Assembly (NCBI GenBank): GCA_051362555.1
Contig: CM120648.1
Coordinates: forward strand, 19,588,587 to 19,652,586
Reading direction: 5' to 3'
Source of the DNA: Lingula anatina
Taxonomy: Eukaryota; Animalia; Brachiopoda
Length of the DNA: 64,000 bases
This document shows, piece by piece, positions 21,216 through 56,162 of this stretch. Every line of letters starts with the position of its first letter. Position 1 is the first letter of the stretch. The notes beneath the pieces were generated by a model that had not been told where the DNA came from, did no database searches, and worked only from the letters and a program-made list of their open reading frames with translations. The translations under genes and the position numbers were made by a program.

Positions 21216-21853
21216 TCATATAAGACGTATGAATGGGGAAGTGTGTAATCAGGTGTGTCGCTTCCAATTAAGTGAATACCAGGTTTGTTGCGCTGCTGCA
21301 TTATGTAATATGCAGTGATTTAATTGGGTAGTGCACCTTTGGGCAGGTCAAAGATTGTCTTTGGCAAAGCATGGTTCTGTCAAAAAAGTATAAAATTTAC
21401 ATGGCTTAAAAGACTTCTTTATGTCGGCAACTACTGCATAGAAAAATTTGAAATTTTGCATGCAAGTGGTCGGTTTTGCAGTGTGTAAATGAGCTATGCA
21501 GTGCTCTATAAATTTTTATGTCTCCTTGATCAAAAAAAGTTCAATACAGTGTCAGAAAAAAAAAGCATTAAAGTGACAAACACAACTATGATGTTCGAAA
21601 TTTGGCCGATGCCGGCCGCTTTTATTGTGAATCCTTCTACTTAAATGAAATGAAGTAATTTTAGAAGCTAAAATTGAATAATTGTGACAGTGCCAAATTA
21701 CGTTACTTTTACGCCTGAAAAGACTTTATTTCATATATAATTCCCAAACAACATAGTGCAGACACTTTAATTTGTGGGGTTGCAAAGCTAATAACCATAT
21801 ATTTACTTGTCTGTCTTTCTTAAGATGCACTTTCAGTTGTAGTGCCCTAAGTA

Positions 21854-24800
21854 CACTATAGCTAATAAGTCCCCGGTCACTTTAATAGCACACGCTGTCT
21901 ACATCAGACGCGCTAATGCGCACGTCCCCGACAGTGTTAATGATAGGGGGATTACGATGGACAGCGCATGTTGCTCACAGCAGTAGGCACTTCTGCCGAA
22001 GTTAAACCGGTAATTAAGTCTTTAACTTGACTAAACATGTTTTGCTTTGTAACGTGCGTCCTTTAGTCTTGCTGTTGCGGAAGCGCCGGCGGGACATATC
22101 TCCACCTTGCCGATATTTATCCCGACTCTCGACTTTAAAAGTATTATTGGTTTTGATTTTATCAAAGTCTTATTATATCAGAAAACCTGCATATTTTCAT
22201 ACGTTAAGAGAATTATAGAAACTGTAGAAAAAGCTACTCGTACATCAGGGATAAAAAACAACACCTTGCAGCACTATTACCTATTATTAATCACCAGAAG
22301 TTACTGTTTCACTTTTTTCTCCCAAATTACAAAGTCTGATGACAACTGAAAGCCTTTAGCCATACCTCAGGGCAGTGGGAGATAGTCTGGATTTGATTAA
22401 ATATAATAAAAGTATATTTTGAAGAATTTTCCTAGCCTTCGGCAATTTCCGCAAAGCTTCGGCATGCGCGGCAATACAGAGCTGTCGATATCTGTAAACG
22501 TGAACAAAAGAATTGGTGGAACAACGGTGAACGTCGTTGAGTCGTCTGCAACTTACCCGACGGGAGTTCGTGTCCCTGCCGGTACTTCTGAAGATTTTGA
22601 AATTGTCATTATTATAAATATCTATTAATATATAAAACAGTCGTGGCTAGTTGTTTTTGCAACGGAAAGCACAGTAGGAAGGTTGGTTGTTATTGTTAAA
22701 AGTTATTATTACTGGGGACATAAATTAGTATGCTAATCTCTTATCATGGTATAATGATTGATACGATGGGTATCAAATAGTTTTCCTTTGATATAAACAA
22801 CAAAAGAGCGGCCTTCCAAATATCTTTGCTGAATGTTTATAACGTAGGTACTATTATGCGCAAAAATATTGATACATGACGCAAACGACATTTACTAATT
22901 TTGGTAATATCAATTTTAATTAAAATTAAATTTAATTGAAATTAAAATTAAAATTTGTCTACACGTGCAAATTACCATTCACCTTGTTTAAAGGGTTCGC
23001 AACACTTTACATTCTAATACATTTTGCCAATTTTCATGTTTGCTAGTTTATTTTGATTTGAGAGAAAACGAGAGAAGACCCTCTACTAGGGCCGCAAATT
23101 AATTATGAGTATTTTTCTTCAGTGCAAGAGACTGTGTAATGAAAAATCAATCTGTAACTCTGGTATAGGGTGGCCTTGTGTGTGTAATAATATACAAGTA
23201 GGGGCAGGGGTACAGTTATATAGTACAAATAGTCATTTTATACATCTTATTGATCTCATCGTCGGGTCATTGTTTACAATAGCGCTTTGTCGCTGTGCGT
23301 ACCTTTTTGCATTTGAGTTAGACTCAGTCAGTAACAGCTGGTGATTTTGTCTTTTTTGCGTTTCATTGACAATATTTTGGCCACCTAAGTAGGGAAATGT
23401 GGCTCTTTGTTTTGAAATGACATTTCCATTGTTCCTTTGAACATGCAAAAGTCAACACACTTACGTCAACATACTTACTTTGTAATACCAACCAAGGGGA
23501 AGAAACAAAAGCCTCATAAGGTGTCGTCATTCACACTGTAAAAGGTGTTAATTTCATGCTTCTATTGTTTGCCCATGAATCATTATGACAAATTTGTAGG
23601 GTTGCCAGATCACTGGCGCTTCATTCAATTCTCTATATCTGCCCTGCAGCCTGGGATGAGTGATACTTGACTGACCTTTGTTTACATCTGGAGATTTTCT
23701 TTATAATTCGATCAGTGTGCATAAATTATGATATTTTCCATCAGGAAAAATACGTGATAATGTTACGATTCTTATTTTACGGATACATAATTACAAAAAT
23801 TAATTCCTGATTTAATACCCCTTATTTCAGCGCCTATTCCTGGCTGCGTTAATTATGGGGGGTTGGAAAGTAATCCGTTAGAACGCAGGAGTGATGATTG
23901 CTACTCTTACCAACGGTGCATCACCGATCAACTAATCTCAGCCACCTGAAGCAGAATCACCAACAAAAGACAAATTGGACTACATCTGCCTTCTTGTTGA
24001 GACATCTTATGTAAAAAAGGCGATAACGGTCAAAACATACGTGCTTCGTGGTTTATTAAATGTTCATCGTATTTTTTCGTTCGTTATTCTTATGAGTTAA
24101 GCAGCTTCACCTCCGTGACACCCTTTTTATTTATTTAAACCATTGTTAGATAAACCATGGGTTTCACTCCAGATTTCACGATCGAGCAGCTGATCATGAG
24201 GAGAGTGTAGCATGCTATAGTAAACTACCCCAAATATATATACAACACCTCCAGGGTTTCACGATCGAGCAAGTGATCATGAGGAGAGAGTGTAGCAGAG
24301 AACTTCATTAATGGTCGTCATAATTGGTGGTTGCCTTGGGAAAATGAGTTACATGATTACATAATACAGATACATAATAACATAAGATTAATACTAAAAT
24401 TTTCCCTGATACAAAGACCCCTATTTGAGCGCTTATTCCTGACTGCGTTAATTACGGGTGATTAGAAAGTAGGCCTAATCTATGAGGACGCAGGAGCGAT
24501 GATCGCTACTCTTACCAACGGTAAATCACCGATTTACTTGACTCCGCTACTTCGAGCAAAATCACACACCACCAAAAGACAAATCAGACCACGTTCGTCC
24601 TCTTATTAAAACAAAGAATGTAAAAATGTGATGTCGGTCAAAGATGAGGCCTAGACTACGTGCTTCATGGTTTATTAGATAGGCCTATTCATTGGATTTT
24701 TTTATTTCAATATTATAGCTTCACCTCGCGAGACCCTTTTTTATATATTTAAAACACAGCACCCCACTGGTTTCGCGATCATGAAGAAAGGGAGTGTAGC

Positions 24801-25995
24801 AAAGAACCTCATTAATGGTCGTATAGGTGGTTGCATTGTAGGCCTAACCTTGTTCATTTTAGTCGACAGACTAAGCTAGAAGAAAGAAAAGATCATTATC
24901 GCCTCTTTACTTAGGAACAATAAGGATGGCTAGTGGCAGCATTTATAAGTTCTTTTATTTAGAAACTTTCCGATCCTTTGTCTGGGACTGCGTCCGAGAA
25001 ACGGCGATAACGACAGAGACGTCCTCGAACATTTTGGACTCAGTGCAAATAAAAAAAATCCGTTAAGAAGTAGCCTTTAAATGTCCTGGCAAATAATTTT
25101 GCGATGGCTCAGAGAGTTCTAGAATGAATGACAAGCAACGACATTAGGGTTAATAATAGACTAAAAACTATCAGAGTGTAGGCCTGTCTTACTTCATTTC
25201 TAAGGCCATCTTGTGATACGAGTCATGCTACACTACAAAAGAGGGGGTAGCAGTGGATGATTTAATACAGGAATACCATCGATAGTATATCAATAGAAAA
25301 TCGCAATCCTCAAATGTTTTTTAATTCATTAAATATAAACGGTCTTTTCTCGTACAATGGGTCTGGTATAGTTGTATTGGCCTATCAGTTGGAAACACGT
25401 GGTTCGTCTACAATTGCAAATGGCGGAGGTGCCGTGGTAGTTATTGTCGTAAAATTAGCTGGATACGGTGCACGTGAGAAAATTATTCATTAAATTTAGT
25501 TTTCGAGCGTCAGCTTAATCTGGTAAAATGCGAGACGAAAAAAATGATAGATAGAGCCTTATGACCCACTGTAGAATGATGCCGAATAATACATCAACGA
25601 CCTAGTTTATCGGCAGATAAACGTGTTTCCATTCTCGGCTGACTGAGGAAAGGTTTGAGAGAGCATTTAAAGAAGAGGCGGTCGAACCAATAGTGAGTAG
25701 GAAGTGTGCTGCAATCAAGACGAACAATACCGATCATAAGTGGACAGCTAATAACCCCTAATTAACCCCGGGTTACGCGCTGCTGTGTTGACTCCTTGCT
25801 GGGAAGGGGTAGCGGCCTCCTACTGCTGTGCGTAATCAAACATTGTCTTCTAACATGCGGCTACACGACGGTTGCATTGTATTAATAAAGTAATACCTAT
25901 TCATAAGGAAGGGGGCGGATGGTAATCTTACGAGAATTAAATCAGTTATCGACCATACGCGTACCAATAGTCTTGTTTTTTTTTTAGCTATACGG
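21854..25995 (-). mobile_element. Non-autonomous TA-flanked TIR element, copy B (longer, inverted relative to copy A)
   Basis: TA|CACTATAGCTAA…TTAGCTATACGG|TA. Near-identical reverse complement of 7638-10106 plus ~1.7 kb of extra sequence that includes a diverged ~600-bp tandem duplication (anchors ~23819 and ~24418). Confidence 0.85.
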
Positions 25996-27655
25996 TATAT
26001 AAGTAAGGGAACCCCAGTATTCGAGATGTGTGAAGGGTGGGGGTTGATAGACATTTTTTTAAACCTCCGTGGAAATGACAGTGGAACATCGGATTTGAGG
26101 GAGTACATGTAATAAATGTGAATAAATGGTATTAAATATGGATATCTTAACCGCTAGTTTGTATTTTCTGTACCACTTATCATGTTAGTTATGGTATATG
26201 GAATGAAAATCGCCATTCATAGCAATTGACTCCTGTGATGTGATCATTTATAAATAAAAGCACATGAAACTGGGGGTGGGACAACCATTTTGACCAATGT
26301 CGTATGAGAGTTGTCTTGCGAGATGAACATATCTGAATCAGCACTACGGTGCCATGTCATCAGATACCATGTGCTCACTCTGGTTGGACTTGTGTGGAAC
26401 AGTCGACTCTTGTGGACACATTTGCCAGAATCTGTTGTTCTGCCCAGAGTTGCTGCAGTGTGCACGTAGGAGCAGATGTATACAGTAGGCTGACAATGTG
26501 CAAGGGCAAAATGCACTGTATATTGCACATGCAAGGGAGATTGTAACGCCTTAAATATTGCAAAGTTTATAAAGAGTTGTAAGGTGATAAAAACATGGAA
26601 ATGACTGGTTACTAACTTTGAACACGCTGCCTTAAGTATTTGCAGCGGCAATGCTTACGGGATTGAAAGTATGAATATCTTGCTCAAAATTGTAGTTCCT
26701 AGCTAGTATTTTAGATTTGCCTTACTTAATAGACTAACGCAACTTTATATGCTTGTTGCTAGGGTAATATACTGCCTAGCAACTGTGGAAAGGTTAATTT
26801 GGGTTTTAATTGCCTTAAAATAGTCTAGGGATAGTTCTGATTCCCTGAAGCATTGTTATTAGCATTTCTAAATCATTTAAACTGGATAAGAAAGGTCTAA
26901 TTAGGTCGCGCAACAAGGTTATTTACAGTTGCACCCTGAATTATGCTCGCTTGCTCCGCAAGGTGTCGCCTGTGGTGGTGGGGCAGCACAGCACATATGG
27001 TTACTGTGGCGAAGGTGACAGGTACTTCCACACATTTTTTCATAATTGTCATTATTCCTCATTCTATTCACAAATTTGATATTTACGGCAATGGAAAATG
27101 TGGCACTGGCAGAAGTGGGTCTTGGTGCGTTGACAGGCTGCACAGGTGTCCCCAATTAACCGCTGCCAGAGGAGAGACCCCAAGCATTAAACAACACAAC
27201 CTGTAGATATTGGAAATTTGGCGAAAGTTAAGCAACTGAGGCTTTATTAGATATGGGCAGAAATTGAGAGGAATGTCCAGTGACATGCCAAACCCTTAAG
27301 TTCAAGTCTTGGCCCTTGACACCAGTAACGCACCCCTTAGTCAAGAATCTGAACAAATCAATGTTGGGCAGGTATGCTCTATTTTCAACAGGCGTTTTGT
27401 GATTTTATCAGCTTGATTGTCAAGTGCCAGACCTTTTTGTTCCCAGGTACTACTACTACTACTACTACTACTAATAATAAGCAAACTTTATCAGAAAGCA
27501 ATCTGACACTAACCATGCTGCACTAATAGAGCTGTAAACTCAGTTAGCAATGCTGTCATCTTTACCTGTATCTTTACCGGTATTATACCAGTGGTACGTT
27601 TGATATATTTCAATATGGAAATATGCTTTGATGCTTATATTTATGTGTAATAACC

Positions 27656-29457: not shown

Positions 29458-32400
29458 TGGCAGCAAGGGACCATCTAGATGATATTGACAAGGAGCTATT
29501 GGAAAAAATCGAGAAAATTGCCCGAGGAGAACATGTGGAGCCAGAGAAACAGGTCACAATTTGGGATTTTGCAGGTCAGGATGTCTACTACACCACGCAC
29601 CAAACGTTCCTCTCAGAACGGATCATCTACTTGTTGGTATTCCGACTTGACCAGGACCTCGATGATAAAATCCGTGTATACAGGGGAGAGAAGACGCTGA
29701 AAGGTATTGTTGAGCTTTATATCTTTACATGTATAAGCTACTCAGGGCCCTCATGTAAATATAATGGCCTGTCAGCTGTGTATAATTTCTTTATTAAAAG
29801 ACCCACATTTTTAAATCTCTCTATTGCTCTTAATATATTAGTATAGGCATTGTTATTATTATTATATTATATATAATATTATATATATTATATTATATAT
29901 TAGTATAGGCATTGTTATTATTGTTAAAATTATTAGGATAGTGAGTTTATATAATAAAAGCGGCCTTGTATGGCCAAATCACGAACACCCGATAGTCTTT
30001 GTTGCCTTCTCTTTTGTTATGAACTGGACTATGCAAGTTTGTGGTGCACTGGGATGGAGGAGACGTAAACGTATTTACACGCCACATGGTTACTATTTTC
30101 ATTGGTTGTCTTTCGTTTTGTGCGCCAACACTTATGTCTTAATGTTACATTAAAATAAAAGAAAACGAGACAAATAAAATTTCTTGCCTTCAACTATCTG
30201 TGAAAATTGTTCATATGATACATACGTTACCGATATATACATGGCCAAATAATATGAAGGTGTTGTTTTCTGATTCCATTGATTGTTTTCTGTTGTCACG
30301 GCTTTGTTTGTGCGTGCGACTTTGTATATGTGCGCACGTTTGTACGTTACCGATACATACGTTACCATGAAGCGTGTTAATAATCATTTTTCTTTGTTAC
30401 GTTAAAATGATACATACGTTACCATATATATAGTCCTGCTTCCAGCAATAGGTAGACCATTCGCACTTAAACGCCAGCATTACGCAGACCGGAATTTTAG
30501 GCAGACCGCAGCCGGTCTGCCTAACATTTTCCCCCCTTCAAAAATGTAGATAAAAGCAGATTGAAAAAGTAATCTGCTGTCAGTTACTAAAGGGTACACC
30601 GATGTTATTGTTTACATTGATTATATATTGTTTGCGAAGCCCATTTAAAAATAAATCAAATGTATTTTTACAACCGTGTATATTTACGATGTATATCAAA
30701 AACTTATGAGACACGCTAGCTACGGCAGACCGTTGGAAAATCGACGATAATTTTCAAGATACGCTATATATCGAAATTATCTCTTTGCTTCTGTGTTATT
30801 TAGCCACATAGCTATCCCTTCGCACAATCAGTTTCTTACAACGCAGATTTTTTACAAGATCGATATTTGACATGCCACCTTTTTCTCCTTCTGAGAGAGA
30901 AAGTCAGCAATGACCTTGACCTTTATGATATAGGTCACTGGCGCGCAATGCATTAGATGGCATGGCTACCGGTACGTGACTGTGCTGCACAAGATATGTC
31001 ACTTCTGAGAGGAAAACAGTTGGTAAGTTTACGTTTTCATCGTATCTTTATAATTAGAGAATGTTGTGAGGAGATTTACTGCGTGTTAATGATCGACTTC
31101 CGGGAAAAAATCGTAGTATAAGATATGAAATTATAATATTCCTTGATGCACATATGTAACTTGCACCCCATTTCCATAGATTTTTAGATCGATCTATCCC
31201 TGTGGGGAGTCTCACTAGATTACTGTCAGCTTGGTCGGCTTAAGCGTCTGTCCCGCCTACTAAAAGCTTTAAGGGGGTAATTAACTATGGTGCCCGCTCG
31301 GCTGACTGCAATTTAGCGTGAAACCCCAGGGAGTTAGATCGATCTAAAACTTATAAAGCTCTGGGAAAGCACCCTAAGTTTTATTGCCATTTCACGCGTT
31401 TTTTTTTTTTTTAATTTGGTCATGATGGTTATATAAGCAAATGCAATTTATGCAAATTTACAGATCTTTAGCTTATTTTGTGGCTAAGTTAAACAGAATA
31501 TGGTGGGGTTTGTCAGCTTTATATACATTTTTATTATTTATTTATTATCCTTAAACAAATTTTGAGACTTTGTTTTGAGAGTGCCCAGAATTTCCAACAC
31601 TTAAGGATTGCCACTCCAATTTTTTCAACCAATTTTAATTCAGTAAAAAGACCTACTGGATACAGTGTACAGAATGAAGCAAAATGTGATGTATTGAAAG
31701 CCAAAGCATATATTACTGGCCATTGGAACTTCTACTTTAGCATCCTCTGTATTAGGTTCTCAAAATACTAGTATATACTCCCACCTTCAAATTTATCATG
31801 TGTATTAGATTTCTGATCTTCATCCAGCACTGATGTAGTCTCTAACACAGTTTGTTTCAGGATAATAGTTATAACTTTAATTTATTCCTTCTTTAATATT
31901 CATCTTTTAAGCCAATAGCCTATGCATAAATAATCTTTTATATAACCTGTTTCAACTGACTCAGAAATTTAATTTCCCATATGAGGCAGAGATTAATTGT
32001 AGCGTAGGGTGGGAGGGGGGTCTCTGTTTGCCCAGAATACTGGACTAAGAGTGCATTCTCAACGAATTAAGCCAGGCTTTACAAAGCCGGTGACCTAAAA
32101 ATGGCGGACGTACATGAAAGAAAAACCGCCTAATCTTTTAATAGTCTCTCCGCCTCTCACACGCCTCCCCACACGTCGTCCCTGCGGGGTTCAGTAATTA
32201 AATCTCGGCTCCGAACATTAATATTACCGTGAATATCTCTGGTGATATTATCTCCGTAGAAAGTCGATTCATTGCTGCTCTACCGGCCAAATTATTCCTT
32301 TTTCGTCTCTGTTTTCAAAGATAATAGAACAGAAGAGCTTTTTTCCTTCGATCGCCTTCAGCCGCCATGCTTTCTTCACCACGAGTTTAACTGATGAGCA

Positions 32401-35400
32401 TGCGCACTTAATATTTCTCAGGTAGCTTCCGCATGGCGAACGGAGACGCAATTTAATTACTGTACCCCGCAGGGACGACGTGTGGGGAGGCGGAGAGACT
32501 ATTAAAAGATTAGGCGGTTTTTCTTTCATGTACGTCCGCCATTTTTAGGTCACCGGCTTTGTAAAGCCTGGCTTACTTCGTTGAGAATGCGCTCTAAGAT
32601 GATTCTTTCATACAGTATTGAATTTCCTTTCAGTTAAGACTTGCTATGCACAGGGTGCAGGTTAGCATTAATTTATAATGTTATATTTATCAATTGTATC
32701 TTAATGACTTTTTATTATGGAAGATTATTGTATAGTTTTAAAAATATAGATATCATATTAAAGTCAAAGGGATTATTTATATTTTCCAATAATATAGTGA
32801 AATAGTGTTCCTGTTGAACTGCATGAAGTATGCAGGGATGTATAGGATAAAGCATGCTGTCTCAGTCTGTTTCTCCTTGAATGTTTTGCTTATATATGAT
32901 AGATAGAAATGAAGCATATATATATTATGATGATGGGAGCGACAGTGGTAAGTTTTTTTTTTTCTTACTTTTACTGAAGCCAGGGGCTTGTGGGGGGGGG
33001 GGCTTGAGACACATCATCACTCCCCACACACCCCATTTTAACACCTACTACTAATTTTTGTAACATAGTATGCATTTGTACATAGTGAGAAGCAATGCTT
33101 AGTTCAGTACACTGATAAGGTAATTTTCTTTCAGAGTATGATCCTTATCTCTTTGATTCTGATGAAGGACCTGTTGACAAAAGAATCAAGGTAATGGATA
33201 CATGAAATCGAAATACTTTAAAGTTATCGCTTTTTTAATATAATATATGTAAACTATCCAAAAGATGACATAAGCAACTGAATCTGTTAAAAGCTTGGTA
33301 CTTGAGGGATTTATTGTACATTAAGCATGAATTGCTGTTTGGAACATCTTGTAACTACAAGCCTTTTGCTTGATTAGGTGTGCTTTACTTTCAGAAAACA
33401 AAAGAGCCTGAGGAGATTGTAGAAAACAGTTATGGTAAGCCTATTATAAATTCCCTAAAAAATTCTGGCTGTAAAATGCTTTACATGAGGTTACATGAGG
33501 ATAACAGTGAGTTTGCTAGGTGTAAATACAGTGGGTATACATACGCAAAGGTACATGTATATCAAGTGCATCTTTATTTTCGTAATTACTTTACACAAGT
33601 GGGATTTATGTTTATTCAGTCATTTATATATGTATTTATTTATTTATTAAGGTGATGGCAGTAGCAGTGTTGTAGATCAATTTCCGTCCTTACAAAAGTA
33701 CATAAGGTAAGCAGATCTGCAAATTTTCATTTTGCTAATAGTTTTAAGGCTGTATGGTATATGCATTTTGTCTCCCACTGCAGTTTGTGAGAAGAAAATG
33801 ATGCATTGTCCTGTAATTTGTAAATACCTAACATTTTTTGGTCTCTGATAATATTATCATTATATTATCATTATATATGCATGCAAGGTAAAGTTACACT
33901 TCTGTATGGGATAATAAAAAGTAGAGGGAATAGTTGATTTTAATGAAGCCTTACATAATTTATTAAAGAAATGATCCATGCATTGATTCAACATAAGAGA
34001 GAGACATGTACTAGTACATTTATATATATAAATGTATATAGTTGTGCAAAACCTCCTGTTGGTAGGAAGCAATGCAATATGTTCATTTGCTTGTTCTTTC
34101 GGGTGGTATTTAGGTATAAATTACTATTTTGATTACTTTCCATGTGCATGAAACAATCTATTAGAATGTGCTCTACTTCCAATTATAGACCTTCATTGGA
34201 CAAGGGTGCTGAGTTAATTACTAGTGGTGAACTTGTCTCTAGTGGCATCGAATGGGAAACCCAGGGTGAGTTATACTGTTAAATAAAAAGAAAGTTAAAT
34301 TGACACTTGGTTATTTCCATTTTTAATTTTTTTTAAACATAGTCAAATTACTACTGGATATAACTGCTCAGAGCCAGTTCTTGTAAACCTGTGCTGGAGA
34401 ATACAAATATATTATACAATAGTGTTTTTCTGAATGCTGTTTTAATGTAAGGTCTGCTTATTACTGGTGCAATATCCAATTCTAAATTGATATTTTTTTT
34501 CTGTGGAACATTACACAGTTCAAATTATGTTTTCAAATTCAAATTATTTACTCATGTATGTATACATATATATACAATATAAATGCATATCTTATAATTA
34601 ACTTCTACATTTCACAACATTATTAATATAAATGCTTTGTAACTCACTAATCTAAACTGAAATATACATATTTATTCTTGTATCTGAGGAAAATAGTCCT
34701 ATGTGCCTGCAATTGTGTGTGAGGTTCAGTCTTTGGCTACTTTTACAGAGAGTGACCTTCAAGATTCTTCAGAGCTTTCACCAGAAGATGTTATTAGATT
34801 TGGCGATAAGGTATTTGTTATAAGTGGAAATATTTGCTTTTAGATGGCAAGATGTATGTACATACCGGTACAGATATAATTCCATTCCCCTTCCTCAAAA
34901 AAAAAAAAAAAAAAAAAATTAGTCATACATACTGGTAAAAAAATTACCACTTAGTCAAGAAGGATTTGTTGAGTCTACTGTTTGATAACCCTCTTTGAAG
35001 TAACTTGCACAGATACTGGAACTCTGTTACTTTATCTGTTATAGCACAAGCTCCAGGCTTTGGAAGAAACTGTGATTGGAAGGTGTCACAGTCAATGCCA
35101 CAAAGAACAGACATTATTTGTCAACTGTATATGCAAGTCTGGACATGAGCCCAGCAGATCAGCAGGTCTTTTTAGATCATATAGGTCACGAAAAAAACAT
35201 CAACAGAGATAATTACCAATGTCCAATTGGACTCAGGGAGGTCAAAGTAATGGGCCGCATGTTGGGAGATCTTGAAAATGGTAATTGTGTTCATTTCATA
35301 ATTACATGTTTACTTAAAATAAGCTTAATTTCTTCATGACTATTTTAAACATTTTTTTTTTTTTTTTGTATTTGAAAATATGTGTCATTTAATCCAAACA

Positions 35401-36324
35401 GATATTTCTATGCATTAGATATCCATGATCTGTAAAGGACAAGATGCAGTCACTAAAATGAGTAAACATTGATTTGTTTTTGTTCTCAGTACCAGAACCA
35501 GCAACGGATTTAACCACTATACAAACAGTTGAGGCAAGTGCAACTGAAACTAAAGAGATTGGTAAAAATGAAGAACTTCAGTGAGGTAATAACATGCATA
35601 CCTTTACCAAATAATCATATTATTTGCAAAACATTTTTAGTGGTTAAAACACAGTGACAGTTTTACAACTACACTGAATATATATTCCCTTTTATGTTTT
35701 TAACATTGTTTTGCAGAAATTGTTTATATTAAATAAAAAATAAAGTATAATATTTCAGACATAACAGCATGTGCATGGTCCACCTCCAAATAAAATTAAT
35801 GTTATTTTGGATATTTGTACATGAATGTGGTTAATTTGCTTTGCAGAGAGCTTCAATCAATAAAAGATGTGTACATATATTTTCTTTTCAGAATAAAATC
35901 TAACATGTAATCCTGTTACATTGATTGTAGAGGGCAAGAAATCTGTATCAGGTAATAACATATAAGAAAAGTAAACAATTGCTATCTTTTATTTGATAAA
36001 ATGAAATGTAAGCTATATAAATTCAGAACAGCTATTTCTTTTTATAAGCTTCTAAAGTCCTATAGGCAAAACTAATGTCATCGAAAAAGGAAATTGTATC
36101 CATCACTTTGAAATAGGGGATTCAAATATGTTATAGATATATGTGCTTTTGTTCTTTCAGTGGCCTGGCCTGCTGAAGACACAAATATGTTGAGAGACCA
36201 TTTTACGCCATATTAAGTACTCACCTAGAGGCTGCGGATAACAAAGGAAGCCTTCCAAGTAAGCATATTTTATTGACTAGATATTGTCATTTTCATGCAT
36301 AGTACCTCTTAGATATAAGAGTCT

Positions 36325-36367
<43 letters not shown>

Positions 36368-39300
36368 TAATGACTAGAAGAATTGGACAATATGGTTCAA
36401 GGTGAACTTGTAACAGAGTGCAGCCAACTTTTTTCGTTTGAAATCATACGTGCATTTTTATTGAATATCCAATTAGTACATTACATTGTTACATTGTAGT
36501 TGTGTACATTTAGAACTACAGGCATCATCCAATTTTTGTCCAAACTGTATATCTGTAGAGTTTCATGTACAAATATAAAATGGCATTTTTTAATAGTTAT
36601 TGAAAAGATGACTCTTTTTTTTTTTTTCTTTAAACTGGAGGAGAAAATTAAAACTATGTTGCCACGAAAATGCAATTTTTGTGAAAATTTGTATTGCTTT
36701 TGGCAGAAGTCGTGTAAACAATACCAGATGGACAAAAAACATTGTGTACTTAAGGAAAATGAATATCTGTATCTAAGTGGAAATAACTTACTTTTAAAAT
36801 CCAGGCCCACAAACTAAAATAGTAAATTGCACATAATTTTTCTAACATCTTATTTTCCAAAAGTGTAACGGGGATGTAAGGAGGTCAACCAATGACATCA
36901 TTCAGCCTAACAAAACTGAATTTTATGATTCATGGAGGCTTTGCTAATGATATTAATATATTTTTTATTTACTTTGAAGGTAAAAAAGAAATAATGACAT
37001 TTCTTGAGGGCCACATGCCACACTGCCTCAAGAGTTTGGAGTTACAAGAAGCCTACAAAAAGACCAGGATAAAGATATTCAATGAGAGAAAAACAATGAG
37101 GGAAAATGTTAATAAAAAACTTCAAAGAATATAGTGCAACTGTTGGAGGATGACTGTTCTTGAAATGGAACACCAATGTTTCTTCAAACAACAGCAAAGT
37201 ATATAAATATTACCTCCAATATTTCAGTTGATGAAATTCTTCTCAAAGTTTGTTCTCCAAAATATTGGAGATAATATTTCACATACTTAACTGTTGCTTG
37301 GAGAAACAATGCATTCCATTTCAAGTTCATTTTACAGTTGACTAAGTTTTTCACAGAGATTGCTCTCCAAAATATTGGAAGTAATATTTCACACATTTAA
37401 CTGTTTGAAGTAACAGTGAAGTTCCATTTCTTGAAGATTGTTCAATGATGCAATGTGCTTGGTGGCAGACAAGTTACACTTAAGACTATGCTTATGTAGA
37501 TTGGTGCATGTTATTCATCCAGACTGTTCAATGATGTGACCTCAATAAATATATTAAGACCTTACATATAGTTTATGTTAGTTGTTTTTCATGTCACACA
37601 AAAAATCCAATAACGGGTAACATTAAAATAAAGTGTGGGATTAGGTCATAATTTTATTTTGCTGAAATTATCCTTGCTCTTTGGTTGAAAAGGAATGATA
37701 TGTTACAGCACTCATAAATTATACTCATAAATTGTAAAGTAAAAATATACAATATACTGTCCCACAAATGACAAAAAATAGATAACATGAATAATTAAAA
37801 TGTGCCAAAGTGTTGATTGTTCTGAGTGGTAAGCACTTTGTGTTGCAACATAGTGCAAAAATAAGTTAAAATGTAGTTTGATATAAAGTCTGCCTAATGC
37901 TGGTTTTTTTTATATATATATAGTGTAAATGGTCTGCTTATTGCTGTTTAGTTACATGTATGCCAAATAAATTGTGGTTTGTGCTCAAAACTAAGTGTTG
38001 ATTTGCTAAAATTATCCTGGCTTTTTGGCTGTGAAGACATTGCTCTTTAAAACAATCCCATTAATTATAAACGCACAAATGTATACAACATATTGTCTCC
38101 CAAATCACACATAATAGCAAGATTGCATGAACAAGAATAATTACTCTGCTAAACTGTTGGTTGCTGTGAGTGGCAACATTATGCAATAATTAATAGCAAA
38201 CAAATGTATACTTTAATATAGTCTGCCTAATGCTGGTCTTTGATATATTTATACAAGTACATGTGGTCCACTTACTGCTGCTAAAATATGCATATATATA
38301 TATATATGTATATTTCTGGTCTGCCTAATGCTTGTCTGCCTAATGCTGGTTCTGTCCTTACAGAAACTTAAGCAGACCAATTTTTTTGTATATTTTTTGT
38401 TGTTTATATCTGTGCCTCTATAATCATAGCATGTGCATAATATTCATTAAGTGTTATAATAAAGTTATTTTTTCAATTATAAATGATCATCTAATACCTA
38501 CCCAGACAGCCTCAGTGATCTGGCCCACGTCTGGCCCAGATCTGGCAACGTCTGGCAATGTCTGGCAAAAGGTATGGCCCACATATGGCTTGCCACATGT
38601 GGGCCAGATGTGGCAATGTTTGGGCCAGATCTGGCCCAGACATTGCCACATCTGGCCCAGTCCACATTTGCTCATATGGCCAGATGTCGGCCCAGATCTG
38701 GCAATATCTGGCAAAGGTATGGCATGCCAGATGTGGGCCAGATCATATTCAAATGGGCCAGATTAGGGCCAGACATGGACCACATATGGCCCAGAATGTT
38801 TTTTTTTTCTTTTTTTTAAATTATTTTTAATTATTCAATAAGATTACTATAAAAAAGACATACAAGATTCAAGATTCAAGTATTTATTCTGTGCTAAAAC
38901 CCTAAACAAAATTATTACACATTATATAACCTTGCTGGCAACTAACATGTAACAAATTAAGGGTCACTCCTTGTCTTTTTGTACAAAACAATGTATATTT
39001 GAAAAAAAAAAAAAAAAAACTACATTGCAAAAAGATAAATATACAGACACTTAACAGGAGGAAATGTCACTTACATACATGTAAAGAAAACAGTTATAAC
39101 AACAATTTTTTTTTTCAACACAAAGCTGCTCATCGAATCTGAATTAACACAAATTACAAAAATTGTAATTAATTATGCATGTACATGGGGGAGGGGTTCG
39201 AGGGGGAAATATTTTTGCACACATTGTCATTTTTAAACTAATTCAAACATATCATTAATAATAATAATCACTAATGAATATAGTTTTGTAATGAATAAAT

Positions 39301-41036
39301 CTTGAATAATGAATGAAAAAACATTGTTTTTTTAGATGATGGTGAGTTATAACAAAATTATAGGTCAAGTCAAAACACAACATCCCTTCCTTTCTTGGAC
39401 AGAAACGGTCCTTTCAAAACATGTTTATTGACAGTTCAGTCTTTAAAATGTCCTTTCAAACATTTGCAGAATAGCATATGAACTCCAACTTTTATTCCTT
39501 AAACCACACTGAAAATTCTCAAAACTTATCAACTCATATCAAATCCCATGTCCTTTCACTACTACTGGTCTCTTCCTATACGTCACATTCAAATGTTCCC
39601 TTCACTTTTAAAGGTTTCTCAGACGTGTATGAATAATGCTGTTTGTTTTCTAGTCCTCCACAAGAGCCACATTTATTTTTCTTGGATTTCAGCATTCTCC
39701 ATGTATTTTCATCAATGATATTACAATATGCACCTGAATCTGGTAATACACTGAGATAAACACCGCCTCTATTTCCTCCATGTCTTCTGTGTATATTGCA
39801 TTGGTTCCCACACCAAATGTATATGCACTCCTGGATTATCATGTTCAAAGCTGTCATTTACATGAATAATAGTTTCAGTTTTGCAGACTTTTGCAAAGTG
39901 ATCCAACGTTCCATGTTTTCTCAGTCAGGGAGTTTCTACTTCGTTTTTCATGTCTAAACTGGTAATGTTTAGACTGGCTTGGTTTGTCAAATGACTTCGG
40001 TTTCATCATACTCACAGTTTCTGGTGTTCCAATTTCATTCAAAGCGTTAACCGTCTAATGTATATTCATGTTTCTAACCTGTGTTTGGGAGAGTCCTGAA
40101 AATATCTTGTACACCTGTCCCTGCTGAATACAACATAAGCGCGCGTCTCCTCTGTCATGTATTTTTAATTTTCCGTTATTCATGCCGTCCGTTGGTTTTG
40201 AAAAGATCAATCTTTTCCGTCAGCGAAGAGGTTTAAACTGTCTAGCCATCGCGTCGAGCGTGACCCTAATGTCTCCGGACTTCTGTACGGTTCGAATTCC
40301 GTAATTTCACATTTTTCCTCCATTTTTTCAAAGAAAGTTGGCTCACAGTTTTGCACTAGTGTTAATCCTCGTCGCCAGTGTTGATGCCTTCGAAATAAAT
40401 CGCATCACAAATCAAATCACTCAACGAATTGTATCAGTTTGATACGCTTGTGCTTTTTTCATATCCATAACTCTAAGAAACGCTACATCCGGGTCCTTGA
40501 CCGGCTTAGCATAAAAAGCGGAATCTTACAACAGCGGAAGGGGTAGTTCAAAAAAGTTTTAGAACAGTGAATTCATTCAAATGTCAAGTCAAATTAAACA
40601 AATAGCACACTTATGAGGGGACTTTGAAGAAAAGAGAGAGATAAATTAAATCAAAATTTATCAAATGACGTCAGTTCAATGCATTCAGCTCACTGGTCAA
40701 TAAAAAATAAATAAATAGAAAATAAAAATTGAAAATGAAAGTACCATATCTGGCCCAAGTCTGGGCAGCATCTGGCAAAATGTGGCATAAATGCCAGACT
40801 TTGCCAGACTTGGCCCAGATCTGGCAAGTGTCTGGCAAAATGTGGCATAAATGCCAGACTTTGCCAGACTTGGCCCAGATCTGGCAAGTGTCTGGCAAAA
40901 TCTGGCCCAGATATTGCCAGACGTTGCCAGATCTGGGCCAGACGTGGGCCAGATTACTGAGGCTGTCTGGGTATATACACGATGGTCTACCTAACACTGC
41001 TTTTACGGGTAGTGTCTGCATAAGTCTGGAACTAGT

Positions 41037-41081
<45 letters not shown>

Positions 41082-44000
41082 ACATTGAGTTTTTAGTAGT
41101 GTTAATTTTAATATTGTAGTAATTTTAAGGATTTTAGTTATATTATCCGTTGTAAGGCACCCAATAACAAACATTATTATTATTATATTAATTGGTGCTA
41201 TTTTTTAGAAATGCTGAGGAGAACACTGATTAATATTCATCTTTGCAATTACCTCAAGGCTTTATATACATTTTCAGAGTTTATTATGTTTTGGTTAAAC
41301 TCAATCCATATGCACACTGTTGGAAAATTGAGGGAAGAAGACAAAAATGCCATGCCATACGTCTTGATTATTGGAACTCATAAGGACATGTTATGCGCAC
41401 AGGTGAAAACGCTTTTCTTATCACAATTATTCAATTACTACCATACTTATTCTATGTATAATTTGTATCCCTTCAACCATATCACGATTCCTGACAAGTG
41501 ACTTAATTATTTAGAAACTTTTCACTATGTGACTATTTGTGGATGGCATGATTTAATGTTGGGGGAAAAGGGTGTTCCTTGCCCCCTGTACTCCATCCTA
41601 ATTTTATATGTTCATTGCAACATACCCCATTTCTCAACTTGAACAAAGTGGACTATATCATATACACACACACACACACCCCGGTAAATGTTTTCTTTTG
41701 CACTGACAATTTAACATTATTATATGGTAATGAACAACAACTACAAAAATGTCTTAACTAGTTTTTATTCACAGGGCGACGTTGAAAAGATTTTTGATAA
41801 ACTCAAGAAGTGTCTCGACGACAAGCAGGTACTCAAGGACCACGTCTACCGATATTTTGCCATAAGCAACTTGGCCGAAGATGATGGGGAGTTTGCTGAA
41901 ATAAAAAGAGCGATCGAAGATTTGTGTGGTTATAGCAGCAACAGTATTGCTACGGTTCAACATCTTTCAGTGAATTGGATTAAATTGGAAATGAATTTGG
42001 CAGAGAAGAGTGAAGAAACACCCATCATAACTATTGAAAAACTGAGGGAAATGGCAAAAAGGGTCGGACTCCCTGATGAAGAATTAAAAGAAAAATTCAT
42101 TCCTTACCATCACCATCAAGGCGATATCCTACACTTCAAAGTTGATGGACTGGAAAATGTCGTCATAATAGATCCACTTTGGTTAGCAGATGTGTTTTCT
42201 GCCATCATGACCAAGGCCAGCAGTCAACCTGGAGGCAGTCACTTTGATCTCCTGAAAGACGATCTGAAAAGAGGAGTGCTCAATGAGGAGGTATTTGATG
42301 AATATCTAAAACAAATCAAAATGGCCGAAAAAAAGACTGAAATCATTCAACTTATGCTGCATTTCGACTTGATGTTAGAAATATCCCAATCAGTTGAAAA
42401 CCCTCTGCCTGGGTCTGGAAAGAGAAGATTCGTTGTGCCTAGTATGCTGGTATCCAATACCAGTGTAAATAACGCCTTGTCTGAGACGGATCCACAGAAA
42501 TATTTGCTTATCGCATTCCCTCACATTCTGTTTCCTACCGGGTTGTTTCATCGTCTGATCATCCGTCTTCTTAAGAAGTATAGAGCTCAGGAATATAAAC
42601 ATAACATTCCAGTTGTTGGGTTTGACCACGCTTCCTTCCGTTTGGGAGACGAACAGTCGGTGCTCCATCTCGCCATTGAAGAAAGGGCCATGAGAATGAT
42701 GATAACAAACGCTACTGGAAACAAACCAAAACCTGACATATACTCCAACGCACGGGAAACCATTGAAAAAGAACTGTCAACTCTTCGGGACACGTACTGT
42801 CCCAGGATGCAGTTAGGCTTTCGCATTCGGTTAAATGACAAAGGAAAAGATATTCCAATAAAAGCAGAAGACGTCCAAGAAAATGATGAGATATGTAGAT
42901 CTGTAGAGGGCACGGAAATGCCAATTGATGTGACACCGTATCGTGTTTGGTTTTCAGGTAAGCATTAAAATTTTAGGTAGTTTTGCTGTGAACAGACATT
43001 ATGTTCCTGAATATAATTAGGGGTAATGTAGTCATTGGAATCGGTGATACTTAAACTGATGTAAATGCAACTAATCATATTGGGTGATGTACTATGATGT
43101 ACATGAAGAGAATTAATATTTCAAATTGTTGCCAATAAACCAAACATTATATATTTTAAAATAATGTAACTTGATAAATACCCAAAGGCATTTTCTATAA
43201 TCCCCGAAAATGATATCTTTACAGATCTTATCAGCATTTTTCCCCTTGGCAAATTTTGCACATCGCCTTTGTTAGAACAGTATAAATATCGCCCACAAAA
43301 TCATGCAATTTATATTTTAATCATTCCAACAATACGAGCTTTACATGGGCATCAACGTCTGTTTGAGGGTAAGACTGTTGCAATTGAACATTTTTCATAT
43401 AAACTGTCACATATTAGATTTATTACCCAGCCATGCACGTTGCTAGAATTGTTTTAACTTTTAATTTAAAAACAAATGCCCAAGCATATTTGGAAAGCAT
43501 TTAATGACAAAAATAAATATTATGCCCTGGTCGTATTTTGAGAATTTACCTGCAGTGCAGAAGGTAAATGTACAGCAGGTTACCTTTTGCTCACAACACA
43601 TATCTATTAATAAGTTTCTTCATACTTAAATTACATGTATATTATTAATTGCTAATTATGGTTCATCATGCGCATATTCTTGTAATCCTTCTTATTTTTA
43701 CAGATAGTGCACAGGCAGTACAAACAAGTGATCCAGGTAATTTTGTATTTGGTATTGCTTAGCTTAGGCTAAGAAGTACGCGCATTCTTATTTTAACTTC
43801 TATTTTTTTTACTTTTAACTTACAAATCTTCAATATAAAGAAATAGCATATATTGTTACTAGCATGTATCCCCTGTTCATATGACAGTACATTTTACTGA
43901 CTACATATTTCTCCCATAATGCAGTGGTGGTTGCCGTATATTTTACACAAACACACACACACTAGTATACTGTTCTATCTCTCTTTCCTTATAAAATTCT

Positions 44001-44723
44001 TGTACAAAAAGCATTGATCATTATCATATTTTTCTATTAATAGGTGCGAATGCCCCAGATGCGTCATCTATTTATACACAGAGGTTTGCAAGGGTGAGTT
44101 ATCTCGTTATTGAACTTGGAACGAAAGTCATTAGAACTTTCTTCCTCAAGGATGTTGTTAGGCCTAGCATCACTAATGGTGAGCACATCAGTGATAAAGA
44201 TGCAGTGCTTCAGTTTTTTGGTAAGCATGATGTGAAAATTGAACTTAAGAAACTCAAGAAAACAAAAGTCATATATGCTTCTCAGTGGAATCTGTTGTAC
44301 CCTGCCTCTGGTCATACAGATGTGGAAACGTTTGACATTACATTGCTAGTGTTATTGATAAGAAAACTTCACCCAGACAAAGCCAACCTGAAATGGTCAG
44401 CACCGAAAGAAAATGCCACGTTACCTTCCTCTCCACAAACAACACAAGGTTTCATTGACCACATCCAACAGCTTAAGAATGTCAGGAATTATATACAGCA
44501 TTCCGCCAAGTATGAGATCCAAGACATGGAGAAATTCTGCACGAAGTGGGAAATCGCCTGTGCTTCTGTTCTAGCACTTGGTGCAGATCCAAATGAAGTT
44601 GAAAAGGCACAGAAATCCATCTTTAGCATACAGGAGATAGATACAATAGTGTGTGAAATACGCAGCTCGGCTGAAGTTACAAACGGCATTTCGACAACAG
44701 ATTTGACAGGCTTGAATTATTAA
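29458..44723 (+). CDS. ROCO-family protein, 3' part: Roc GTPase - COR - DZIP3-type HEPN domain; 5' exons including the G1 P-loop not found in the window
   Basis: Phase-compatible exons: 29458-29703 (IWDFAGQDVYYTTHQTFLS…IYLLVFRL, G3); 41278-41402 (FWLNSIH…LIIGTHKD, G4); 41775-42957 (FAISN G5; COR motifs HHQGDILHF, VIIDPLWL, FVVPSML, PTGLFHRLIIR); 43704-43736; 44044-44723 (QWNLLYP, FDITLLVLLIR, RNYIQH). The frame is open throughout. Confidence 0.88.
31182..31349. repeat. Small imperfect inverted repeat (MITE-like)
   Basis: ttttagatcgatcta-tccctgtgggg … ccccaggga-gttagatcgatctaaaa. Confidence 0.45.
32049..32594. mobile_element. PIF/Harbinger-type MITE with ~150-bp TIRs and TAA TSD
   Basis: TAA|GAGTGCATTCTCAACGAA…TTCGTTGAGAATGCGCTC|TAA, with long near-perfect inverted arms. 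Confidence 0.85.
32907..37134 (+). pseudogene. Spliced, disrupted tyrosine-recombinase-like gene of the Crypton-like element
   Basis: Small phase-compatible exons at 33135, 33394, 33652, 34189 and 34749. The exon at 35045-35280 carries NATKNRHYLST…LDHIGHEKNINRDNYQ (R, H and Y catalytic-type residues), but out of frame and behind a TGA, so the core is deleted. The exon at 36161 (WPAEDTNMLRDHF…GSLP) has a frameshift. The final exon 36980-37134 reads KKEIMTFL…KIFNERK. Confidence 0.65.
38501..40971. mobile_element. Non-autonomous CACTA/EnSpm-type element (CCCAG termini, 2-bp TA TSD, subterminal repeats)
   Basis: TA|CCCAGACAGCCTCAGT(G/A)ATCTGGCCCACGTCTGGCCCAGATCTGGCAACG…CTGAGGCTGTCTGGG|TA. Arrays of TGGCCCAGA/TGGCAA units at 38501-38795 and 40745-40971. 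Confidence 0.88.
39540..40385 (-). mobile_element. Degenerate Gypsy LTR-retrotransposon remnant (PBS, gag, zinc knuckle, protease)
   Basis: Minus strand: …TCAACA-C-TGGCGACGAGGAT (PBS at 40365-40377, complementary to the tRNA-Ser(GCT) 3' end). ATG at 40323 starts MEEK…ETLGSRSTRWLDSLNLFADGK, then QRRRALMLYSAGTGVQDIF, DHFAKVCK and VLPDSGAYCNII. Confidence 0.8.
41039..41078. repeat. (TA)n microsatellite at the right end of the Crypton-like element
   Basis: Pure TA run. Confidence 0.9.
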
Positions 44724-44766
44724 TATTCTCTGTATGTGCCATCCTCATTGTGTTAGCCATAAATTA

Positions 44767-45020
44767 CAAGAAGTGGATTTAGGTGGGGAAGGGGTCACGG
44801 GGATCCTGGTTTCTGAAAAAAATCACACTAGTATTCCCCTCTTGAAATTAGAATTTTGACTAGCTGAATCATAGTTCTAAATAGAACCAAATGACACCAT
44901 TCGCCCTATAAAGTATCAAAATTTTCCGGGGCCTAAAGTGGGCCTTTGAACCCCATGCCAGGGTGGTGTGGCTTGGCATATGCGCCCCTCCTCCTTCAAA
45001 TAACCTTGGATCTGCCCCTG
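44767..45020. mobile_element. hAT-like GC-rich MITE with apparent 5-bp TSD (AATTA)
   Basis: aatta|caagaagtggatttagg…cttggatctgcccctg|aatta. Shares the internal ttgaaattagaattttg-ctagctga motif with the copies at 57956-59023. Confidence 0.55.
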
Positions 45021-53567: not shown

Positions 53568-56162
53568 AGAAGCCAAGGAAGTGTTTCTGGACCTTGCAGA
53601 AATGCAGAGGAGGATCACTTCAGCAATATCCCTGTGTTTGGAAAAATCCTGCTCAGTATGAAGTATGACTACAGAAAAGGTTGGCTGATTATACATATTT
53701 ACAGATGCCAAGACCTTGCTCCAGCTGATGTGAAGAAGAATAGATCTGATCCGTGAGTTTTTTTTTTTTTTTTTTTTGCTGTGTTTTTTGCAAGATACGG
53801 CATAATTTGAGATCTTAATACCATGTGAAAGCAAAACATGCCATTTGTAGCTTATCTCAACAAAAACAAAATTCATGGTGTTATCCAAATGTGTTGAACT
53901 TAATTCATTCACCTAATTTTTACACTGTTTTATTTATGATCGTAATATTTTAAAGTATCTCTGGGTTGCAGCTATGTCAAGACCTACCTCTTGCCAGATA
54001 AATCAAGAGGTGGGAAGAGAAAAACAAAGATAAAGAAGAATACATTGAATCCAACATTTGATGAATTGCTGCATGTAAGTTTCAGCATAAACTGTAAAGA
54101 AAGTAAAGAAAATACTGTTCTTTTAGTTGGTGCAAGGCTAAGCATTCATGGTGAGCAATTCAATGCATCAATAAATTGTTTTTTAATTAATGTACATGTT
54201 GTGGTGTATCTGCTGACAGTCACCCACTATCCTGTTTCAGTACATCATCAATAAGAATGAGCTGGAAAGAAGAACCCTGTGGGTGTCAGTCTGGCACAGT
54301 GTCACATTTGGCCACAATGTGCTCCTGGGTGATGTTGTTTTGCCTCTTAATAAACAGAACTTCGATGACACCTCACCACAGTGGTTCCAGCTATCAGGAG
54401 TAAGTTGGAGAAGTTACAGTAGTATTCAAAGCAATGTTAAATATCAATTTTAAAAGCAGGTTGAAGCATATACAGCTACTTTTTAATGATGTTAATTATA
54501 ATTTACAGACACATTGTGTTAATTTAGTTTGTGAATCCCAAGTTTTTCTGCAATACAGGACCATATGGCTGCTGGGGATCGAGACCAAGCCGTTACTAAT
54601 GTCACTGACCCTCACAGCATCAAAACAAAGAGAGGCCAAGTTCTAAACCAGGCTGATGTGGGCAACCAGTGGCAAAGGTCAACATTATTGGAGACATCTT
54701 TACAGCCCAACCTGGTTGTTCAAGGAGAATACCAACAAAACCAACCATCATCACAACCTACCTTTGGCAAGCAGTTGTTGCAACAAGGCAATTTCCAATC
54801 TCAGACACTACCTGGTAAGTCAACAGGAACAAATCAGCGCTGTCATCATGAAGGACAATCCCAACATAGCAGACTACCTCAGGGGCCAGTCACTGACCAC
54901 CACCTGCAGGAACAAGGTGGTGACCACTTTCAAACAAGGAAATCAGGCCATGACTTCCCACCTTTACCCTCACAACAGGACCCTCTGGCTGCTGAGGATC
55001 AAGACCAGGGTGTCACTGATCCTCAGTCCACCAGAAGAATGGGAAACCAAGCTCTTAACCAGGTCCATGGGGATAATCAGTTAGAAAGTTTACCTACGGC
55101 AGTGACACATGGGATTGCTGGGGTTCTAAGACAGATCCCCACTAATACAGGCAACATGCACATTACATTCAATGTTCAGCAGAATTACCACAATTACTCA
55201 GAAAAGGAATCAATGACAAGCATGAAAGAGAAAGATGTGACAGCGTCATTTCATAAACATGTCCCTCCAAGTGTGAAAAAACGACTGAATGAGACACTTT
55301 CTCAAAATGATGTATGGAACCAAGTAAAGGAGATGTATGACATTTCAGATGAAATCCCATGTCCTCCTGATGTTGTGTCTTCTTTGTTGTCTCAAGTTGA
55401 GGGTTCCATTGCATCTTTCATCAGTGTGTTGTTAAAGTTAAAAGAATGCCACAGAGAAGGACAGCAAGACATTCCACAAGATTTGATTAATGAAGTCAAG
55501 GTAATTGATACTATGGTCTAAAATAAAGTCAAATAAAGTAACCAGTCTTTTAAATTTAAAATTGACCATGTATTTCTTCATATTCTAAGTGAAAAAATAA
55601 AAGCTAGAACTAAATGTATAAGACAATGGGTTGGCTGTTTGGGATTATTAAGTGAATTGTAAGTTGTTTACACAACCTCATGGTTTGAATGAATAGAAGT
55701 TGTAAATAAATGTGACCTATTATATTTCTCTTCTAGAAAGGACTTCTGAGTGAAATGGAGTACAACAGACTGAGAGAGAAAGTGGTTGACTTTGCTGAGG
55801 AACTTTCGATGCATATAGAAAGAACTTTAGATTACCTGTATCAGTTTAATGTAATACCAGATGAGGAGACAACAAAACTTAAAAATGATGCACAGAGAAA
55901 TCCTCAAGACGCTTGCAGAAATTTCTTCAAAGTACTGCTTGCAACCAGTCCTAAAAAAGGACCAATTATATATCTGAAAGCTGCATTCAAAAATTCCGGT
56001 CTTGGGCATCTAGTAAATGAACTAGAAGTCAGCTATCAGGATGTAGAGGATGAAATACAGAAACATGGAGGTGGCCGACCTTCTTGTGAAGAGCCGTTGG
56101 TGATAGGAATGACAGCTCCCCCCACACCTGCTACAGGTGAAAACCCTATTGGAGAACATTAA
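53568..56162 (+). CDS. Chimeric protein: SYTL4/5-like C2A - Q-rich linker - death-domain-like region - CARD (no own start exon visible)
   Basis: Exons 53568-53752, 53972-54074 and 54241-54399 encode [18 protein letters not shown]…[32 protein letters not shown]…NPTFDE…RTLWVSVWH…LLGDV (Slp4/5 C2A). They join in phase 0 to 54559-55500 (Q-rich, then [22 protein letters not shown]…) and to 55737-56162 (FAEELS…[10 protein letters not shown]…[14 protein letters not shown] pattern). AATAAA near 56269. Confidence 0.75.

Follow-up and report, generated by a model that had tools for sequence, protein, structure and literature searches.

The 64,000-nucleotide (nt) stretch of Lingula anatina DNA analysed here, called the window (assembly GCA_051362555.1, contig CM120648.1, positions 19,588,587 to 19,652,586 of the forward strand), carries on its + strand a spliced Roco gene in which a Roc-COR tandem is joined to a HEPN domain whose RNase-type motif is intact. 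Five exons with AG/GT ends and agreeing phases give one open frame of 754 codons. The first of them, with an unbroken acceptor site at 29458, is the earliest exon of the Roco family located within the window. The exon carrying COR ends at a phase-1 intron just past the residues YRVWFS, the same spot where paralogues exchange their tails, and is followed by a 33-nt microexon of which an earlier note, made from the DNA letters alone, makes no mention. The parts of the gene are:

29458..29703, + strand: exon with the middle of Roc and the G3 motif WDFAGQ, phase 1-1 (motif, Pfam, phase match)
29704..41277, + strand: intron of 11,574 nt with repeats and a possible transposon remnant (skipped by reads)
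41278..41402, + strand: exon with the Roc G4 motif THKD (motif, phase, junction reads)
41775..42957, + strand: exon with the end of Roc (AISN) and the entire COR (Pfam COR-A, junction reads)
43704..43736, + strand: symmetric 33-nt microexon encoding the linker DSAQAVQTSDP (phase, junction reads)
44044..44675, + strand: last exon, DZIP3-type HEPN (PF18738, E 1e-18)
44484..44501, + strand: R-N-Y-I-Q-H (Rx4H), putative RNase motif (read from sequence)
44676..44678, + strand: one-base frameshift of the assembly with respect to the reads and RefSeq copies (reads, tblastn frame change)
44681..44782, + strand: helical stalk, then a predicted transmembrane helix at about 44711-44767, then a short basic tail with KKWI-stop at its end (hydropathy, read-backed frame)

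The earlier note had read this gene as a ROCO GTPase fused to a C-terminal HEPN domain, and the motifs on which it relied (WDFAGQ at 29562-29579, THKD at 41376-41387, AISN at 41859-41870 and RNYIQH) are all found where it placed them. WDFAGQ and THKD are the most frequent G3 and G4 forms among the relatives that we retrieved, and AISN is taken here to be the G5 motif. The profile check that it proposed was run on the spliced product, and all three domains were matched by Pfam above cut-off: Roc (PF08477, 6e-8), COR-A (PF16095, 1.5e-21) and HEPN_DZIP3 (67.9 bits, the cut-off being 27, over positions 6-130 of the 144-position profile), the last confirming the HEPN identity of the 44044 exon. Roc is immediately followed by COR in the domain order and the junction is backed by reads, which places the product among the ROCO proteins. 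A model of the sister copy P0156 matches the COR and Roc-COR structures of CtRoco (3dpt/3dpu; Foldseek E 5e-12) as well as LRRK1/2. No kinase family is present among the Pfam matches of the spliced product, in which COR is joined instead to the microexon and HEPN, in agreement with the claim that no kinase follows COR, unlike in LRRK1/2.

The motif R-N-x3/4-H is kept in 17/17 Roco-fused HEPNs examined, whose sources include Lingula, mussels, a clam and a sea anemone; in the aligned domains R and N are invariant (16/16) and H is retained in at least 90%. Its presence and conservation uphold the description of the RNase-type motif as intact, and the polar N that follows R in RNYIQH corresponds to the definition of the HEPN RNase motif. 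A bare Rx4-6H is weak evidence alone because 46% of 5000 exon shuffles contain one, against 1.7% for RNx3-4H; the weight of RNYIQH comes from its location inside the Pfam domain and its conservation. The HEPN model is all-helical (predicted local distance difference test score 87), and ranks 1-3 of a fold search are all HEPN proteins, namely Csm6 (Z 7.5, root-mean-square deviation 4.5, 125 aligned), Swt1 (7.0) and Roquin (6.9). The top match in the atlas is a cluster with HEPN_DZIP3 in 11% of its members (score 0.96). Foldseek with the HEPN model returned nothing at E <= 0.001, the HEPN profile found no relative by sequence among solved structures (best E 0.014, a ribosomal protein), and the KEN domains of RNase L and IRE1 were not among the best 50 rows of the wide fold search, which excludes nothing. 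The predicted HEPN homodimer scored 0.34 versus 0.48 for one unrelated control, a comparison that gives no verdict and is used neither way.

Four RNA runs (X1, X2, X4 and X7) were aligned to 41200-44900 of the window. In X4 the depth is 21-58x on exons and 0-8x on introns, with the strand expected of a + transcript. The G4-COR junction is crossed by 40 X4 reads, the COR-microexon junction by 7 window-type and 11 variant-type X4 reads, and the microexon-HEPN junction by 12 reads in X4 (2+10) and 7 in X1. For the G3-G4 junction the support is a loose end of 45 reads ahead of 41276 that equals 29672-29701 at 30/30 bases; no read evidence was seen 5' of 29458. All junctions are thus backed by stranded reads from the window gene or near-identical copies. 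The earlier note would have given up the fusion if the HEPN exon were not spliced to COR or the gene not transcribed; the COR-microexon-HEPN junction reads show the splicing, and the stranded X4 reads the transcription, of the window gene or its near-identical copies. In addition, 14 X4 reads exit COR at 42957 into another phase-1 exon. A position of this exon downstream within the window was rejected (best match 18/30), and its likelier source is a close paralogue that carries a different tail; the joint is also readable as alternative splicing to a distant exon. Six of the 31 X4 reads lack four bases at 44503, just past the HEPN motif, which represents a transcribed broken copy or allele.

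The reads also carry an extra base near 44677 (in X4, 9/25 behind 44676 and 12/21 behind 44678; 2/3 in X1 and 2/2 in X2), so that the frameshift is either an assembly error or a tail-less allele, and the read-backed frame extends to a stop at 44782. The Kyte-Doolittle value of the best 19-mer of the tail is 2.38 in this frame and 2.2-2.9 in six RefSeq copies. The tail is the sole hydrophobic segment found in a scan of P0001, and the model of P0156 ends in a long helix of low confidence. The hydrophobic helix is therefore present in the reads and in six RefSeq copies, and membrane insertion, with the organelle concerned, is predicted from it. Whether such a tail goes to the ER, mitochondria or peroxisome depends on its hydrophobicity and charge (PMC5450235). 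No membrane helix was found in the Lingula paralogue P0003 or in any of the 8 mussel Roc-COR-HEPN proteins (Kyte-Doolittle < 0.8).

The probable front end came from a query with the G1 region of the paralogue P0005, which led to LOC106159696. This RefSeq locus carries an NHL propeller, an intact GPYGVGKT, G2, G3 and G4; its G3 exon is 97.5% identical to that of the window over 81 amino acids and its G4 exon 95%, and at its end it continues into the intron sequence found at window 41403-41489. LOC106159697, the next locus number, contributes the COR end, HEPN and tail at 97% identity to the window, and the contigs of both measure 45,860 bp. The NHL structures closest to the propeller of LOC106159696 are those of TRIM2/3, TRIM71 and Brat. 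Since a RefSeq copy 95-98% identical to the window gene has both an NHL propeller and an intact P-loop, the full protein is likely NHL-Roc-COR-HEPN-stalk-anchor. For the window copy the NHL front is likely and not certain because fronts are exchanged too: an 83% identical propeller sits on P0013, whose Roc-COR is only about 30% alike, and in P0005 a HEPN domain occupies the same front junction. Inverted repeats 96-99% alike bound an 18-kb block upstream of the Roco exons and the next intron spans 11.6 kb, so the 5' exons may lie beyond the window.

When 1.84 billion representatives were searched, 4,423 hits reached E <= 0.001, of which the best 150 were listed and 147 new ones scanned; domain counts are minima, with only five families shown for 20 of the 147 proteins. 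Among these best 147 relatives, Death domains occur in at least 53, TIR in at least 8, GT4 glycosyltransferases in at least 4, a C-terminal caspase in at least 3 and trypsin in at least 2, while HEPN is C-terminal in at least 9 and N-terminal in at least 4. With the same limit of five families for 20 of them, a kinase after COR was seen in none, and the one kinase present lies N-terminal to Roc. By sequence, the window gene belongs to a large invertebrate Roco family with Death, TIR, caspase, glycosyltransferase or HEPN after COR. The 8 C-terminal HEPN proteins from outside Lingula come from the freshwater mussels Sinanodonta and Potamilus, and sources of N-terminal HEPN Roco proteins include Mercenaria, Mytilus and Nematostella. 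The proteins closest to the window gene all belong to the RefSeq models of Lingula anatina, with 85-98% identity when exons are compared singly, and at least 6 HEPN-tail loci are present in RefSeq for this species. Lingula paralogues exchange HEPN, caspase, RHIM-like and other tails at the one exon border after YRVWFS; because the tails change at a single boundary that is a phase-1 intron, exon shuffling likely produced the tail variety of Lingula.

A quick Roc-COR tree was built from 65 rows (7 of 72 chosen rows were dropped, their G3 pattern being unmatched) and rooted at the midpoint. The Lingula genes form one group (Shimodaira-Hasegawa-like approximate likelihood ratio test, SH-aLRT, 100) in which HEPN, caspase and other tails occur together, the mussel HEPN proteins fall inside a separate group (SH-aLRT 100), and the C-terminal HEPN label needs three changes. 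This midpoint-rooted tree suggests that C-terminal HEPN fusions arose separately in Lingula and freshwater mussels. The swappable character of HEPN as one of several end modules, the predicted membrane tail and the likely NHL front had been overlooked by the earlier note.

Some further features of the family were observed. Residues 666-681 at the end of the Lingula paralogue P0004 (LOC106170498) match RHIM weakly (E 0.007, short of the cut-off), hinting at amyloid signalling by this tail. Other Roco layouts among P0012, P0019, P0047 (from Branchiostoma) and P0138 are Bcl-2-Roc-COR-caspase (in Owenia), Neuralized-Roc-COR-Death-TIR and Roc-COR-GT4. Nothing in the window matches the caspase-like neighbour of LOC106168738 (P0006).

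We lean towards reading the Lingula protein as a one-chain sensor-switch-effector, in which Roc-COR-HEPN, with a likely NHL front and a predicted tail anchor, would cut RNA in defence upon pairing, and we hold this to be somewhat more probable than its opposite. The NHL propeller would bind a ligand, which may be RNA, as in the case of TRIM-NHL propellers, and the ligand would shift the nucleotide cycle of Roc. COR-COR pairing would then unite two RNxxxH motifs in one composite site, as CtRoco, RnlA and the sibling modules lead us to expect; among the sibling end modules, most (Death, TIR, caspase) are switched on by proximity. The paired state would be the active one and, by the precedent of CtRoco, more likely GDP-bound or empty than GTP-bound. 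Viral or host RNA would be cut near the membrane, leading to shut-off or cell death. RNA is plausible as the ligand because the NHL-like domain of TRIM56 binds viral RNA, according to passages of PMC6623546. Passages of PMC8266594 state that HEPN RNases require a canonical dimer with two Rx4-6H motifs in a composite site, and mutagenesis of the HEPN motif is described in a section of PMC3710099. A bolder version, which we regard as doubtful, is that of an animal equivalent of RNase L and IRE1: the NHL propeller would read viral RNA at the membrane, an LRRK2-type GTPase would pair, and the tail-anchored HEPN would destroy RNA. This would make it the first GTPase-controlled animal ribonuclease and one cassette in a family of exon-shuffled Roco immune receptors that parallels the NOD-like receptors (NLRs); the HEPN version would have arisen independently in brachiopods and in freshwater mussels.

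Several observations weigh against the one-chain sensor-switch-effector. The G1 P-loop pattern GxxxxGK[ST] is present in no frame of the whole 64-kb window, and the G1/G2 region, NHL and linker microexons of the relatives have no match in window positions 1-29457; the GTP site of the window copy, with its P-loop, is accordingly presumed from the near-identical copy. The frame of the assembly stops at 44723, without the tail, a stop that is likely not the natural end because the reads carry the one extra base. Three of the four RNA runs (X1, X2 and X7) barely cover the gene, with a mean exon depth < 8x. Moreover, 492 X4 reads are 95-99% alike to the window versus 75 at 99+%, and read variants at 44236-44247 agree with LOC106151602-type copies; on both counts the reads bear witness to the subfamily more than to the window copy, whose own expression is not proven. 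The three HEPN fold matches all lie under Z 8, the noise level for helical bundles, and the HEPN of Swt1, second among them, is thought inactive in the relevant part of PMC3710099. No report of RNase activity of any DZIP3-type HEPN was found in the literature searched. Finally, the bacterial Roco protein CtRoco is mainly a dimer when empty or GDP-bound and a monomer on GTP (PMC5714945). The general logic of the earlier note stands, but its GTP-gated dimerisation is weakened by this precedent, which leans towards the opposite nucleotide state.

The missing front raises the alternative, which we judge unlikely, that the window copy is a 5'-truncated or decaying duplicate with neither sensor nor P-loop exons and with its tail lost, hence no working switch, or a decoy partner. 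The 29.4 kb upstream without a G1, NHL or microexon match would agree with this, as would the RefSeq halves on a 45.9-kb contig, the one-base shift ahead of the tail, the many reads that fit other copies and four RefSeq models that likewise begin after G2; the X4 reads with four bases lost at 44503 also indicate that broken copies are transcribed. However, all five exons are open, in phase and 92-98% identical to the closest copies, the acceptor of the first is intact, and seven X4 reads show the window-type COR-microexon joint, while the block between inverted repeats and the long intron could place the 5' exons outside the window.

Other alternatives concern the effector and the switch. There is a small chance that HEPN binds RNA or serves as a scaffold, or that it is an RNase outside Roc-COR control, with the protein acting in membrane-associated RNA turnover or stress control. 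HEPN with a single transmembrane helix is the layout of C6orf70/ERMARD, for which such a role is proposed, as it is shown for IRE1, in passages of PMC3710099; the position of HEPN is not fixed, given that it is N-terminal to Roc in P0005 and four others, and the literature searched offered no activity data for the DZIP3-type family. The retention of the motif in every Roco-fused HEPN examined speaks against this role, and recent multiplication with exchange of tails with caspase, TIR and Death suits conflict systems better than housekeeping. A reversed switch, in which the resting COR dimer would separate the HEPNs and GTP would free them to pair via the membrane stalk as a GTP-on enzyme of the kind that the earlier note expected, appears quite improbable. 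It would be in line with the resting and active dimers of RnlA (passages of PMC8266594), with titles of papers on CtRoco that call GTP-driven monomerisation activation, and with a second pairing surface that the stalk and membrane helix could give in a low-confidence model. However, since all 8 mussel Roc-COR-HEPN proteins and Lingula P0003 have no membrane helix, their pairing must have another source, the simplest being COR.

Besides the Roco gene, the window harbors other features. At 53570-56162 (+) there is an odd, separate-looking C2-CARD gene: its exons comprise some with C2 (PF00168), one rich in glutamine, which presumably holds a RHIM-like stretch without a Pfam match, and a final one with CARD (PF00619, E 1e-5). 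That it belongs to the Roco gene is not shown, and its middle exon has no match to the P0004 tail (E 0.11). The nested inverted repeats, at 7633-10111 and 21849-26000, surround an ~18-kb block packed with dispersed tandem-like repeats, which turn up again at 45.8-51.9 kb, and the block is possibly a large foldback element or a recent inversion. Exon-like pieces at 1061-3895 (+), the final one with a BEN domain (PF10523, E 1e-10), perhaps belong to a gene carried by a transposon and lying either ahead of the Roco gene or within it. Within the 11.6-kb intron, a piece of an open reading frame (ORF) at 35045-35339 (+) has no Pfam match and scores 0.87 to an integrase cluster in the atlas; to us it recalls the C-terminus of a tyrosine recombinase (Crypton-like). 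Near-perfect tandem arrays occupy 60.6-64.0 kb, with units of ~67 nt (61.4-62.1 kb) and ~77 nt (63.2-64.0 kb). Rfam gave zero matches, and eleven short intronic or upstream ORFs matched no Pfam family at E < 0.05.

The output of Roc-COR and its active nucleotide state are a long-standing question for LRRK2, a Parkinson gene, and a Roco protein with a dimer-dependent RNase output, if true, would directly report pairing biochemically. The Lingula gene also points to largely unstudied invertebrate GTPase-based immune receptors that swap effector exons, parallel to NLRs and bacterial defence, and gives a first test of whether the much-expanded DZIP3-type HEPNs of marine animals cut RNA.

A one-chain sensor-switch-effector of this type resembles several known systems. 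The RefSeq loci LOC106159696/7, LOC106181119, LOC106151602 and LOC106168738 are uncharacterised members of the same family as the window gene, in which automatic Pfam annotation flags Roc, COR and HEPN; the models are split or 5'-truncated, none covers NHL through tail, and no publication on them was found in the literature searched. RNase L and IRE1 likewise combine a sensor, a regulatory domain and a HEPN RNase (KEN) activated by dimerisation in one chain, but their switch is a kinase or pseudokinase dimer and their HEPN is of another family, whereas Lingula has a Roco GTPase; IRE1 is also membrane-bound (noted in PMC3710099, in part). LRRK1/LRRK2, DAPK1 and CtRoco share the Roc-COR tandem, and the sister-copy model matches CtRoco and LRRK1/2 structures; in the Lingula protein no kinase follows COR, no leucine-rich repeats (LRRs) were found and the effector is HEPN. 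DZIP3-type HEPN is fused to NACHT in oysters (passages of PMC9646362), and these bivalve HEPN-NACHT proteins, with DZIP3 and hRUL138 fusions, share the HEPN family, an Rx4H with N after R, lineage expansion and a presumed antiviral role (the same passages and those of PMC3710099); they differ in having a STAND ATPase as the switch and an N-terminal HEPN. One row of Table 1 in PMC3710099 does not include Roc-COR among the DZIP3-type fusions. In Owenia fusiformis, a caspase with a ROC pro-domain is treated as a single oddity in the main text of Horkan et al. 2024 (PMC11463336), where HEPN is unmentioned; it is also a kinase-less invertebrate Roco with an effector, which is a caspase. A ROCO-TIR is mentioned in Aplysia (PMC9334734, in part) and immune ROCOs in brown algae (PMC11378527, in part). 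No paper on an animal Roc-COR-HEPN was found in a search that left most subscription papers, and bioRxiv supplements, outside.

A further parallel is bacterial. Counter-invader proteins of the LRR-AP-GTPase(Roc)-COR type end in no fewer than 24 kinds of domain (Kaur et al. 2021, PMC8195603), and the portion of the supplement consulted has at least 2 LRR+AP-GTPase+COR+HEPN entries (WP_086489369.1 and WP_086489735.1). The paper and its supplement support the analogy with prokaryotic NTPase-effector defence proteins drawn by the earlier note. Common to these proteins, themselves predictions, and to Lingula are a repeat sensor, a Roc-COR switch, a variable C-terminal effector including HEPN, and several paralogues per genome with different effectors. 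The Lingula gene differs by its introns, its animal origin, NHL (in the closest copy) in place of LRRs, a DZIP3-type HEPN and a predicted tail anchor; with NHL where N-terminal LRRs would stand, the protein would work like the AP-GTPase-COR family without being filed there. The sensor-NTPase-effector layout is known from bacteria; the novelty lies in an animal protein that has Roc-COR-HEPN, a membrane tail by prediction and, in all likelihood, an NHL front.

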